64,000 nucleotides of DNA, taken from an uncultured Candidatus Saccharibacteria bacterium (GTDB lineage Bacteria; Patescibacteriota; Minisyncoccia; Phycocordibacterales; UBA2100). A program made the position numbers. Of the stretch, positions 3,001-6,000 are shown piece after piece (the stretch's first letter is position 1; every line of letters begins with the position of its first letter). The stretch covers positions 29,725-93,724 of the forward strand of contig CAZHOB010000002.1 of assembly GCA_964534465.1 (NCBI GenBank), given 5' to 3'.

Positions 3001-6000
3001 TCGCCCGCGAAAAACCTCGAGGTCGTTTTCAACGCGCTTTCGCATGCCAAACACGCGACCTTGGATATCTTCGGCACGCCCGGACCGGGTAATGCCGAAT
3101 ACGCGTGGGACCTGAAGTCCACATTCAAAGGATTGGAGGGAAGCGGCAAGATATCATTTAAGGGGAGCGTGGCTCACAGCGAGACACCCACGATCTACGG
3201 CACTCACGATATTTTTCTTCATACAGGGTCATTGCGTGGTTTCAATAAAACGCTCCTCGAAGCCATGGCGGCCGGCAATATCGTTATTACCACTGATCCC
3301 GCCATGCGAGGTATTGTCAGCGAGAAACTCTATATACGAGAGCTCACGCCCTCAGCACTCTCATCTGCACTTGCCGCTGCGCACGCGCTTCCAGAAAACG
3401 CGCGTGCGGAAGAACGCAGCCGACTGCGAGCCTATGTGCGCCGAGAGCACTCGCTTTCGTCAGTTGTTCCCGCTATGCTTGAGATGCTTGCGCGACCCGG
3501 CGGGGAAACGCGTTCATAATGCCTGCAAAACGTCTTCTCATTGTTACGCAATCGGTCGACTCTTCTGATCCGCAGTTCAGTTTTTTTATTCGGTGGATAG
3601 AAGAGATCGCGAAGCATTTCGAAAAGGTGAAGGTCGTTTGCCTTAAAGAGGGCAAGCACGCTCTTCCGGAGAATGTGAGCGTGCATTCGCTCGGCAAAGA
3701 GGAAGGTGCGTCACGCGGCAAATATGTGAAACGGCTGTATTGGTATTCGCTCCGTTTCGCGCGGCAGTACGACGCGGTCTTCGTGCACCAGAATCAGGAG
3801 TATGTCATTTTAGCAGCGTGGCTCTGGCATTTCTTGGGTAAAAAGGTGTATCTCTGGCGCAACCATTGGGCCGGGGGGCTTTTTACGCGACTGGCAGTCA
3901 AATTTTCCGATAAGGTATTTTGCACATCCAATTTCTCGTATACGGCAAAATTCAACAAAAACGTCATCATGCCGGTCGGCGTTGATACGGCACTTTTCAC
4001 GCCGGTCGAGGCTGTTCGGCGGAGTGAATCCATTCTTTCACTCGGCCGCATCGCGCCCTCCAAGCGGCTCGAGCTTATCGTCGAGGCGCTCGCCATCTTG
4101 CGGGAAAGCGGGTACGAGCTCAAAGCGCATTTCTACGGCAATACAGAGCCGCAGGACTTCAAATACGAGCAAACTCTCATGCGGCGCGTTAAGGAATTGC
4201 GGGTAGATCACCTCGTCGTGTTCCACCCCGGCGTGCAAAATGCTCAAACACCGGCGCTCTATAGCGGCCATGAATTTTTCATCAATTGCAGCGAAAGCGG
4301 CATGTACGACAAGACCATCTTCGAAGCGCTCGCATGTCAGTCGCTGACCATTGCCTGCAGCAAAGATTATGCGGAAATCGCCGACCCGCGCCTGATTTTC
4401 GAAGGCACGGCTCGCGATCTGGCACTCAAGCTCAAGGAATTGCTAAAACTACCCGATGCCGAAAAAAACGCCATGCGCGAAAGCGGCCGCAAACTATCTG
4501 AAACACAGTCCCTCTCCGCACTTGCCGAGAAAATAGCGGCGGCGTTGTAGGCGCTCGTAATGTGTGGTACGGTGCGAACGCCTATGGTGCGTTTCAGCGA
4601 GCTCGATCCGGCTTCCTTTGGTGGGGCGATCCTTATTGTCGATGTAGACGGTACGATAACCAACGACAATAGTGAGGAAGTTGAATGGCCGGCCAAATTG
4701 CATCTGCGCAAGATGACGGAATATGCACGCGTGTACCTTTGTTCCAACAGCGCGAGCACCGCGCGTTTTTGGCATCTGGCTCGCGATACGGGCGCAACAT
4801 ATCTCGTTACTCCGCTTCGAAAACCCGACGTGCGGATACTGCAGCTCATTCCGCATACGGCGGGCAAGCGCATCGTCGTTATCGGCGACAAAAAGCTCAC
4901 CGATGGCCGTTTTGCCGACAGGATCGGCGCTGAATTCGTACAGACCGCGCGTATCACGCATGATTCTGACCGATGGAGCGTCCGGCTCACATATGCACTC
5001 GACGACCTATATTCGTGGCTCTCCGGCATGGCGCAGAGGGTCGCCCCCTTTATCGAGCTCGCGAGGCCCCTGCAATGGGTAAAAAATCTTCTTGTTTTTT
5101 CACCGATGTTCTTTGCCAGCAAGGTTTTCGACGCCACCATCTTCACAGAAAGCCTCATTGCGTTCCTCGTCTTTTCTTTTTCGGCAAGTGCCGTGTACGT
5201 CATGAACGATCTCGTGGATGCGCCTTTTGATCGTTTGCATCCGAATAAAAAACACCGGCCCATAGCGCGCAATGCCGTGCACGAAACGAAAGCCGTTGCG
5301 CTGGTTGCCGTTTTTCTGGCAATGATCATCATCTCGCTTGCATTCTCGCCTGCGGTGCTGCCTATAGCGTTGCTCTATATCGGACTCAATGTTCTTTATT
5401 CTTTCAAGCTCAAACACGTAGCCGTGGTCGATGTGCTGCTTGTGGCCTCCTTCTATCTTCTACGCGTCGTTGCCGGTGGTCTCGCGACCGCACTGCCGCT
5501 TTCGCCATGGATAATTCTCTGTGTGCTGTTCGGTGCCCTCTTTATCATCGTTGGAAAGCGCAAAGCCGAATTTTCTCGTGAGTCGCGGCGCACGGTTCTT
5601 GAGTCGTATTCACCGGCCGCACTCGATGCATTACTCGCAGTCTCCGCAGGCCTATCGATAATTTCATACGGTCTCTACTCCATCCTCGGCCACAATTCGC
5701 CGTATCTCGTTTACTCCACGATTTTCGTCGTATTCGCATTTTTCAGAGTGCTCAATGACATCTTCACGCACCCGAATGATGCTGAGTCACCGGAAAAACT
5801 GGTGTTTAAAGATCGCTGGATCTTCGGCGCGTTCCTCTGCTGGGTACTCTACGTGTTCGTCGTCTTCTATATCTTGTAGGTAGGCGATCGGTACGGTACG
5901 CTGGTGCCTAATGGCCAGATATTTCATAACCGGCGGCGCGGGATTTTTGGGTATCAATATTGTAAGACACCTCCTTGCGAAAGGTCACGATGTGGTTTCG

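Follow-up and report, generated by a model that had tools for sequence, protein, structure and literature searches.

A HAD-IIIA phosphatase fused to a predicted lipid-linked pentofuranose donor synthase in an uncultured Saccharibacteria bacterium and other Patescibacteria

Can one polypeptide of a Patescibacteria lineage both load ribose-5-phosphate onto a lipid carrier and remove the 5-phosphate, and what would then become of the product? The question was raised by an open reading frame (ORF) at 4560..5879 (+) in a 64,000-nucleotide stretch from an uncultured Candidatus Saccharibacteria bacterium (GenBank assembly GCA_964534465.1, contig CAZHOB010000002.1, positions 29,725 to 93,724; hereafter the window). 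An initial annotation had read the ORF as a HAD phosphatase fused to a UbiA-type transferase resembling decaprenyl-phosphate 5-phosphoribose (DPPR) synthase, naming as partners a GT-C glycosyltransferase, a GtrA-like protein and a short-chain dehydrogenase/reductase (SDR), and had taken the fusion to be undescribed. Our analysis upheld the enzyme and its functional logic, did not uphold its novelty and found the role given to the SDR incomplete.

The 439-codon ORF is present, and its translation contains both peptides quoted earlier, IVDVDGTIT and NDLVDAPFDRLHPNKKHRPIA. Because the identical database protein P0001 (431 aa, 100% identity) and all 34 aligned homologues begin with MVRF, the true start is probably ATG 4584 rather than 4560, so that the earlier gene span stands except for its first codons; residue numbers below count from ATG 4584. 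A contig search for the identical fusion protein returned a single 1.7 kb Logan contig. Pfam, NCBIfam and an AlphaFold2 (AF2) model built on 35 homologues (pLDDT 92.3) placed an N-terminal phosphatase and a C-terminal synthase in one polypeptide. The first part is a capless HAD-IIIA domain of the YqeG/PGP-phosphatase-like kind (residues 1–130; 4584..4973 (+)), assigned from NCBIfam models, motifs and the AF2 model. A linker helix (residues 131–160; 4974..5063 (+); AF2 secondary structure, pLDDT 86–92) leads from it to the first transmembrane helix of a nine-helix UbiA-fold polyprenyl-phosphate phosphoribosyl synthase (PPPRS) domain (5064..5879 (+)), recognised by its match to Rv3806c, NCBIfam DPPR-synthase models, invariant columns and the distribution of Lys and Arg.

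The membrane domain matched UbiA (Pfam PF01040) at residues 183–400 (E = 2.5e-21). Its top three NCBIfam matches were all decaprenyl-phosphate phosphoribosyltransferase models (199, 181 and 163 bits), compared with 22–26 bits for the heme O synthase and 4-hydroxybenzoate prenyltransferase (UbiA) models. The closest solved structure by sequence was Mycobacterium tuberculosis Rv3806c (PDB 8j8j, E = 2e-42; next UbiA-family structure, 1.9e-3). Foldseek of the AF2 model against the PDB, which for the whole model reports only the larger synthase half, also returned 8j8j (template modelling (TM) score 0.84, 33% identity; other UbiA structures, ~0.7), and nine transmembrane helices were modelled. The motif highlighted by the initial annotation, N208-D-x-x-D212-x-x-x-D216 followed by H219, K222 and R225 (5205..5267 (+)), and a second motif, K325-R-x-x-E329 (5556..5570 (+)), consist of columns (N208, D209, D212, D216, H219, K222, R225, K325, R326 and E329) that were invariant in 35 fusion proteins sharing 38–69% identity. 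By the positive-inside rule, NDxxDxxxD...HPxKxxRP falls in cytoplasmic loop 2–3 and KRxxE in loop 6–7. Residues equivalent to the Asn/Asp of the first motif are essential for the activity of ORF15 of Citrobacter youngae (PMC11127046). Judged by sequence and model, the domain belongs to the DPPR-synthase clade of the UbiA superfamily, as had been proposed; none of the NCBIfam, PDB and Foldseek searches grouped it with MenA/UbiA.

The N-terminal domain carries all four HAD catalytic motifs: motif I, D20-V-D22-G-T24 (4641..4655 (+)); motif II, S54-N55, and motif III, K80 (both within 4584..4973 (+)); and motif IV, G101-D-K-x-x-T-D107 (4884..4904 (+)). Among the 35 fusion proteins D20, D22, G23, T24, N55, G101, D102, K103 and D107 were invariant and S54 and T106 at least 90% conserved; in a 21-sequence set of fused and stand-alone copies, D20, D22, T24, N55, G101, D102, K103, T106 and D107 were invariant and G23, S54 and K80 at least 90% conserved. 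Residues 25–145 matched NCBIfam TIGR01668 (YqeG HAD-IIIA, E = 6e-10), with further matches to TIGR01662 (HAD-IIIA) and, weakly, PF09419 (PGP phosphatase). The YqeG and HAD-IIIA models were matched by 21/21 of the fused or free copies, with TIGR01668 the best subfamily, and HAD-IB by 0/21. In the AF2 model the domain alternates strands and helices (Rossmannoid), and no cap is inserted behind motif I, from which ~10 residues lead to the next helix, as in the capless subfamily III. A sequence-profile search of the domain against the PDB gave weak generic HAD matches. YqeG and Gep4, a PGP phosphatase, are thus its nearest likenesses among HAD models (TIGR01668 and PF09419), but with TIGR01668 scores of 38.9–42.2 bits against a curated cutoff of 89.1 the domain is a member of neither equivalog. 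Gep4 removes phosphate from a lipid head-group phosphomonoester.

Of the Lys and Arg residues in the loops of the fusion, 15 lie on the side of the N terminus and 1 on the opposite side. This asymmetry places the phosphatase and both Asp-rich synthase loops, by prediction, on the cytoplasmic face, where phosphoribosyl pyrophosphate (PRPP) is found, and so answers the topology question that the initial annotation had posed for the HAD domain.

A one-polypeptide route to polyprenyl-phospho-ribofuranose has been established biochemistry since 2024, which deprives the idea of novelty. Kelly, Duong, Nothof, Lowary and Whitfield (PNAS 2024; PMC11127046) showed that ORF15 of C. youngae O1 joins a HAD-family phosphoribose phosphatase to a UbiA-type polyprenyl-phosphate phosphoribosyl synthase. 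Membranes with ORF15 converted PRPP and farnesyl phosphate to farnesyl-phospho-ribofuranose, and farnesyl-phospho-ribose-5-phosphate built up with the D18A phosphatase mutant (PMC11127046). The O1 donor is exported by a MATE protein and then consumed by a GT-C enzyme, while in serotype O2 a neighbouring GalE-like SDR, ORF13, switches the side chain from ribofuranose to xylofuranose (PMC11127046). Such HAD-PPPRS fusions are also modelled by NCBIfam NF006088/PRK08238 ('UbiA family prenyltransferase', 482 positions), and the earlier view of the architecture as undescribed has to be dropped.

The window protein nevertheless differs from these fusions in its phosphatase. It shares with ORF15 the domain order (N-terminal HAD, C-terminal UbiA-type PPPRS) and, by prediction, the two-step chemistry, and with the C. 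youngae system, as far as candidates go, the kinds of partner (flippase, GT-C and optional SDR epimerase); of the three-component pentofuranose system of Kelly et al., the lipid-pentose synthase with its phosphatase is recognisable here by sequence, fold and motifs. ORF15 was represented in our comparison by four NF006088-type proteins, from Rhizobium tumorigenes, Rhizobium sp. CCGE531, Rhodovulum and Ruegeria; the CCGE531 record is among those that the supplement of Kelly et al. lists as recovered by tBLASTn seeded with ORF15 (PMC11127046). The R. tumorigenes plasmid protein scored 523 bits against NF006088, and its gene is followed by DprE1-like, DprE2-like and GtrA genes. All four have motif IV GDSxAD and a ~60-residue insertion after DLDGT, which we read as a helical cap like the one that Kelly et al. 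describe for the ORF15 phosphatase (PMC11127046), whereas the window domain is capless, YqeG/IIIA-like and has GDKxLTD. A hidden Markov model (HMM) of the HAD domain from the candidate phyla radiation (CPR) gave 1–7 bits on the four proteins, compared with 121–169 bits for the synthase HMM, and hhalign of the two types aligned the phosphatase halves with 9.5% probability and the synthase halves with 100% (E = 1e-41). Against NF006088 the window fusion scored 161 bits (cutoff 351), confined to profile positions 188–394 in the synthase half. Because the insertion and motif IV differ and the HMM and hhalign scores of the phosphatase halves are so low, we assign the two fusion types to different HAD subfamilies and, on these sequence comparisons, place the window protein outside the ORF15/NF006088 family. 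The settings differ as well: the flippase candidate is GtrA here (SMR-like in relatives) and MATE in C. youngae, the host here is a Patescibacteria lineage, and the NF006088 fusions of Proteobacteria (~480 aa) have DprE1/E2-like, GtrA, SMR or GT39 genes as neighbours.

The mycobacterial Rv3806c/Rv3807c/DprE1/DprE2/Rv3789/Emb-Aft system likewise supplies a lipid-linked pentofuranose donor to GT-C enzymes, and Rv3806c has the same Asp-rich motifs as its homologue here. Mycobacteria, however, have a free-standing phosphatase with no relation to the HAD family, and epimerisation is carried out by the FAD oxidase DprE1 and the classical SDR DprE2. Rv3789 is a GtrA-family protein.

The fusion recurs widely. 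About 70 full-length fusion clusters were found among the best 120 matches, all informative source names being Patescibacteria, which settles the check on homologues that the initial annotation had proposed. A scan of species-representative genomes yielded ~40 loci titled Zambryski-, Kaiser-, Paceibacterota, Peregrini-, Gracili-, Buchanan-, Nomura-, Morani- and Giovannonibacteria, many further loci labelled only uncultured Saccharibacteria, and unfused synthases in Bacteroidota, Clostridia, Planctomycetota and Methanomicrobium. Synthase loci of relatives collected for comparison carry labels of the form L003. In 13 loci the HAD-IIIA domain is not fused to the synthase and is mostly a separate gene of 137–164 aa next to it, in varying order: GT-C, small membrane protein, HAD, synthase, SDR (L024, L040, L045); synthase, GtrA, HAD, SDR (L038); synthase, HAD, small membrane protein, SDR (L041); or synthase, SDR, HAD, GT-C (L034). 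Since the HAD also stands free beside the synthase in such varied orders, there is strong comparative, Rosetta-stone evidence that it belongs to the pathway of the synthase whether fused or split. In a neighbour-joining tree, a rough distance tree without support values that was used as a hint only, synthases with a HAD-IIIA partner formed one clade apart from the NF006088 type, with split forms basal or interspersed. These comparisons suggest that the fusion arose within Patescibacteria, probably independently of the proteobacterial one, because its HAD domain is unrelated to that of the four NF006088-type proteins beyond superfamily level and is unfused in related Patescibacteria loci. Targeted full-text literature searching found no paper tying this synthase to Patescibacteria. 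One locus, L036, encodes a 571-aa protein (13874..15589) with HAD-IIIA at residues 7–149 and ~420 further uncharacterised residues, downstream of the synthase, an SDR, a 547-aa protein and a small membrane protein.

The tightest partner of the fused synthase is the SDR, present in the window as the initial annotation had reported but with its importance understated. Encoded at 5911..6948 (+), 31 nt downstream of the fusion, it is an extended, GalE-type SDR (Pfam Epimerase, E = 1e-39) with the motifs TGGAGFLG, SSTAVYG and YGKAK, a set that we take to be the GalE-like pattern without the Asp-Glu pair of 4,6-dehydratases. It belongs to no curated family; the best NCBIfam match was HpnA (110 bits, cutoff 368). 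Linkage was counted over loci flanked on either side by 3 kb or more, a partner being scored within 5 kb of the synthase. Where the HAD is fused, an SDR orthologue occurred in 24/26 loci, an SMR/TMEM234-like or GtrA gene in 22/26 and a recognised GT-C in 12/26. The corresponding counts were 10, 9 and 4 of 13 loci with a split HAD, and 2, 3 and 0 of 25 with no HAD-IIIA nearby. The orthologues counted share 67–83% identity with the window SDR. Unfused synthases, too, have the SDR as a partner in Methanomicrobium mobile (72%) and Ignavibacteria, on haloarchaeal plasmids (50–53%) together with PHP phosphatase and GT-C genes, and in Streptomyces/Nonomuraea (42–45%). The best 120 SDR database clusters were all 75–84% identical to the window protein, compared with 36–69% for the synthases of the same loci; their source names include Kaiserbacteria, Paceibacterota, Nomurabacteria, Anaerolineae and 'Verrucomicrobiae', and further members lie at L063, L088 and L094.

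No DprE1 or DprE2 homologue was found in the 64 kb window (tblastn, Pfam) or in any Patescibacteria locus examined. The absence of DprE1 from the window had been noted before and taken to favour a ribofuranose donor. That step does not follow, since the linked SDR is by analogy probably an epimerase of the lipid-linked pentofuranose, as ORF13 is; the final donor may differ from ribofuranose and need not be ribose. The likeness to ORF13 of C. youngae O2, drawn by description only, lies in a cytoplasmic GalE-like SDR with TGxxGxxG and YxxxK whose gene adjoins the synthase gene, and the difference in the unusual conservation of the window family across phyla. A classical SDR of the window (26138..26878) was considered as DprE2 and set aside: it gave generic SDR matches, and the DprE2 model, which scores 168 bits on the Rhizobium DprE2-like protein, was not among the 25 models listed for it; tblastn with that Rhizobium protein also gave no match in the window. 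Rhizobium sp. CCGE531 (L087) and pNGR234a (L093, next to nodS) share a cluster in which an NF006088-type synthase is accompanied by two SDRs, a hypothetical protein of 658 aa, a GMC oxidoreductase and an SMR transporter. The second of these SDRs, adjoining the SMR gene, has 33–34% identity to that of the window, and the likeness takes in the C-terminal tail HR-x-P-x-KQ-x-IL.

The other two proposed partners lie further away. The sole GT-C of the window (14665..16320 (+)) is a GT-C fold glycosyltransferase with a C-terminal alpha/beta domain (AF2 pLDDT 88.9; weak PMT_2 match). Its 14 Foldseek matches at E ≤ 0.001 were oligosaccharyltransferase catalytic subunits (STT3, AglB), ALG12, ArnT, Pmt4 and ALG9, and AftA stood at rank 20 (E = 0.016). 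The following gene, at 16313..16786 (+), overlaps the GT-C stop by 8 nt and encodes a small membrane protein of the GtrA family (Pfam PF04138, E = 2e-16). Both genes, 8.8–10.4 kb from the fusion, and the GT-C fold were confirmed, and their link to the donor remains an inferred one; that they use it is plausible. No GT2/GtrB-type lipid-sugar synthase was found in the 64 kb (Pfam), which leaves the fusion as the single local enzyme that could supply a polyprenyl-monophosphate sugar. Synthase cassettes include or adjoin a GtrA gene in L038, L085, Ruegeria and R. tumorigenes, and orthologues of the window GT-C are separated from the fusion by 3–7 kb in L003, L031 and L035 and lie directly upstream of it in L032. 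Many related loci instead carry, usually adjoining the synthase, a four-helix membrane protein of 110–137 aa (e.g. L006 9651..10004 and L095 4362..4730) with weak matches to TMEM234 (PF10639), SMR (PF00893) and EamA. It lies within ~1 kb of the synthase in 23/39 Patescibacteria loci with a HAD partner (3 kb flanks) and is a likely flippase. Three membrane ORFs of the window, 18775..19830, 9956..10327 and 57932..59434, were considered as flippase or GT-C, and none matched the cassette HMMs.

With the domains, their catalytic motifs, the fold, the topology and the conservation of gene linkage as the observed frame, we infer the substrates, the reaction of the SDR, the identity of the flippase, a partnership with the GT-C and the acceptor, and consider the following pathway probable as a whole. 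The C-terminal UbiA-fold domain would move ribose-5-phosphate from PRPP onto polyprenyl phosphate, and the capless HAD-IIIA domain, tethered by its helix on the same cytoplasmic face of the membrane, would strip the 5-phosphate to leave polyprenyl-phospho-ribofuranose. The downstream GalE-type SDR would most likely epimerise the lipid-linked ribose to another pentofuranose; xylofuranose has a precedent and arabinofuranose is possible. The donor would then be flipped across the membrane, by GtrA here and by the SMR/TMEM234-like protein in relatives, and used by a GT-C enzyme to decorate a surface glycan built by the surrounding island, which is rich in GT4 genes. Modestly new are the apparent second origin of the one-polypeptide solution from a different HAD subfamily, the conservation across many Patescibacteria lineages of a cassette of synthase, HAD-IIIA, SDR and small flippase-like protein (a GT-C was recognisable in under half of the cassette loci with the models used), and a widely distributed, unusually conserved SDR family without a curated family or known reaction. 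Should the SDR indeed epimerise lipid-linked ribose, many uncultured bacteria and archaea would have a route to non-ribose pentofuranose donors, and the precedent of Citrobacter ORF13 would reach far beyond Proteobacteria. A bolder version, which we regard as a long shot, is that the SDR is a single-enzyme polyprenyl-phospho-ribofuranose epimerase of Patescibacteria, methanogens, haloarchaea, Chloroflexi and actinomycetes, making arabinofuranose or another epimer without DprE1/DprE2, and that the independently evolved HAD-IIIA fusion gives CPR bacteria of reduced genome a lipid-pentofuranose glycosylation.

Several observations weigh against the proposed pathway. For the enzyme itself, the best DPPR-synthase model (NF008978, 199.2 bits) narrowly missed its curated cutoff of 207, though the score remains far above that of any other UbiA subfamily model, and every HAD model scored below its cutoff. 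An identity of the membrane domain as an aromatic prenyltransferase, in the manner of MenA, UbiA or heme O synthase, deserves practically no credence: membership of the UbiA superfamily (PF01040) would allow it, and the identity is refuted by the NCBIfam scores, the PDB sequence match and Foldseek alike. The phosphatase, for its part, could act on another phosphomonoester of the pathway or be regulatory instead of removing the 5-phosphate of lipid-linked ribose, a reading with which the sub-cutoff scores, the generic PDB matches and the lack of a match to any specific substrate family agree. We think it quite improbable, given catalytic motifs that are fully conserved, a link to the synthase that persists both fused and split, a location facing the same side of the membrane as the active site of the synthase, the 5-dephosphorylation performed by the analogous domain of ORF15 and the lack of a PAP2 or other candidate 5-phosphatase adjoining the fusion gene. 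Its matches to TIGR01668 and TIGR01662, sub-cutoff as they are, also support the initial annotation of the domain as HAD.

Other doubts concern the partners. The candidate GT-C and GtrA genes stand in another operon than the fusion, and the window lacks both the GT-C family and the SMR-like protein found in the cassettes of its close relatives L003, L007 and L006, as well as a MATE gene (cassette HMMs; tblastn). L003 and L007 are the closest relatives (66–69% synthase identity, with the same upstream genes for a UDP-glucose dehydrogenase–GT4 fusion and a GT4), and in both a GT-C from another family immediately precedes the fusion, where many other loci have the SMR/TMEM234-like four-helix protein. 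This other GT-C family lies within ~1 kb of the synthase in seven loci (L003, L006, L007, L014, L024, L040 and L045), separated from it, if at all, only by SMR-like, HAD or SDR genes; it has no BLAST similarity to the window GT-C, and L003 carries both types. The GT-C and GtrA of the window may accordingly serve another lipid-sugar system, the dedicated transferase and flippase being elsewhere or lost. We hold this to be possible if somewhat doubtful, as the window has no other source of a polyprenyl-phosphate sugar of GT2/GtrB type, the window-type GT-C recurs 0–7 kb from the fusion in L003, L031, L032 and L035, and GtrA is a cassette member in the four loci named above. With the SDR the difficulty is that an Anaerolineaceae genome (L094) has it without a synthase or UbiA gene within 6 kb, that some fused loci (L005, L027 and L029) lack it and that its best model and structure matches are dTDP-glucose dehydratases, GalE and HpnA. 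If it served a nucleotide sugar of the same glycan and not the lipid-linked pentose, polyprenyl-phospho-ribofuranose would be the final donor. This seems unlikely to us. Of the loci with a HAD partner, 34/39 have the SDR no more than 5 kb from the synthase, versus 2/25 of those without; the pairing recurs in haloarchaea, Streptomyces and Methanomicrobium, ORF13 is a precedent for an SDR that sets the lipid-linked pentose, and at least six other extended SDRs of the window could do the nucleotide-sugar work. In L003 and L007 the different-family GT-C, of 511–524 aa, lies between the GT4 gene and the fusion (8380..9954 and 8446..9981, respectively); the window has at that place only a 33-nt spacer (4550-4584), the gene having been lost or never gained.

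The window as a whole is a surface-glycan island with many GT4 genes, a carbamoyltransferase-methyltransferase, an asparagine-synthase-like amidotransferase, nonulosonic-acid genes, heptose-type genes and an ABC exporter. Upstream of the fusion, at 1564..3519, a GT4 is joined to a UDP-glucose/GDP-mannose dehydrogenase that has its N-terminal and central domains but no C-terminal UDP-binding domain; the same fusion occurs in L003 (5344..7374, Pfam), and a size-matched gene holds the same position in L007 (5439..7397). Convergent with the SDR, 6954..9800 (−) encodes a 948-aa protein with N- and C-terminal carbamoyltransferase domains followed by a C-terminal S-adenosylmethionine methyltransferase, whose place is occupied in L007 by a 947-aa gene. 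A run at 22655..26878 (−) comprises a PfkB kinase, a transketolase split into C-terminal and N-terminal genes, a Zn-dependent alcohol dehydrogenase and the classical SDR set aside above as not DprE2-like. The nonulosonic-acid-type set (38109..50001) includes a PseB-like dehydratase, NeuB (−), a DegT aminotransferase and a CMP-sugar cytidylyltransferase. Beside these genes lie a trio of an ATP-grasp gene, a thiamine pyrophosphate-dependent enzyme and a HAD_2 gene (41093..44401), and a 513-aa protein (44412..45953 (−)) that joins an N-terminal CBS domain to an extended SDR of the epimerase/dehydratase type.

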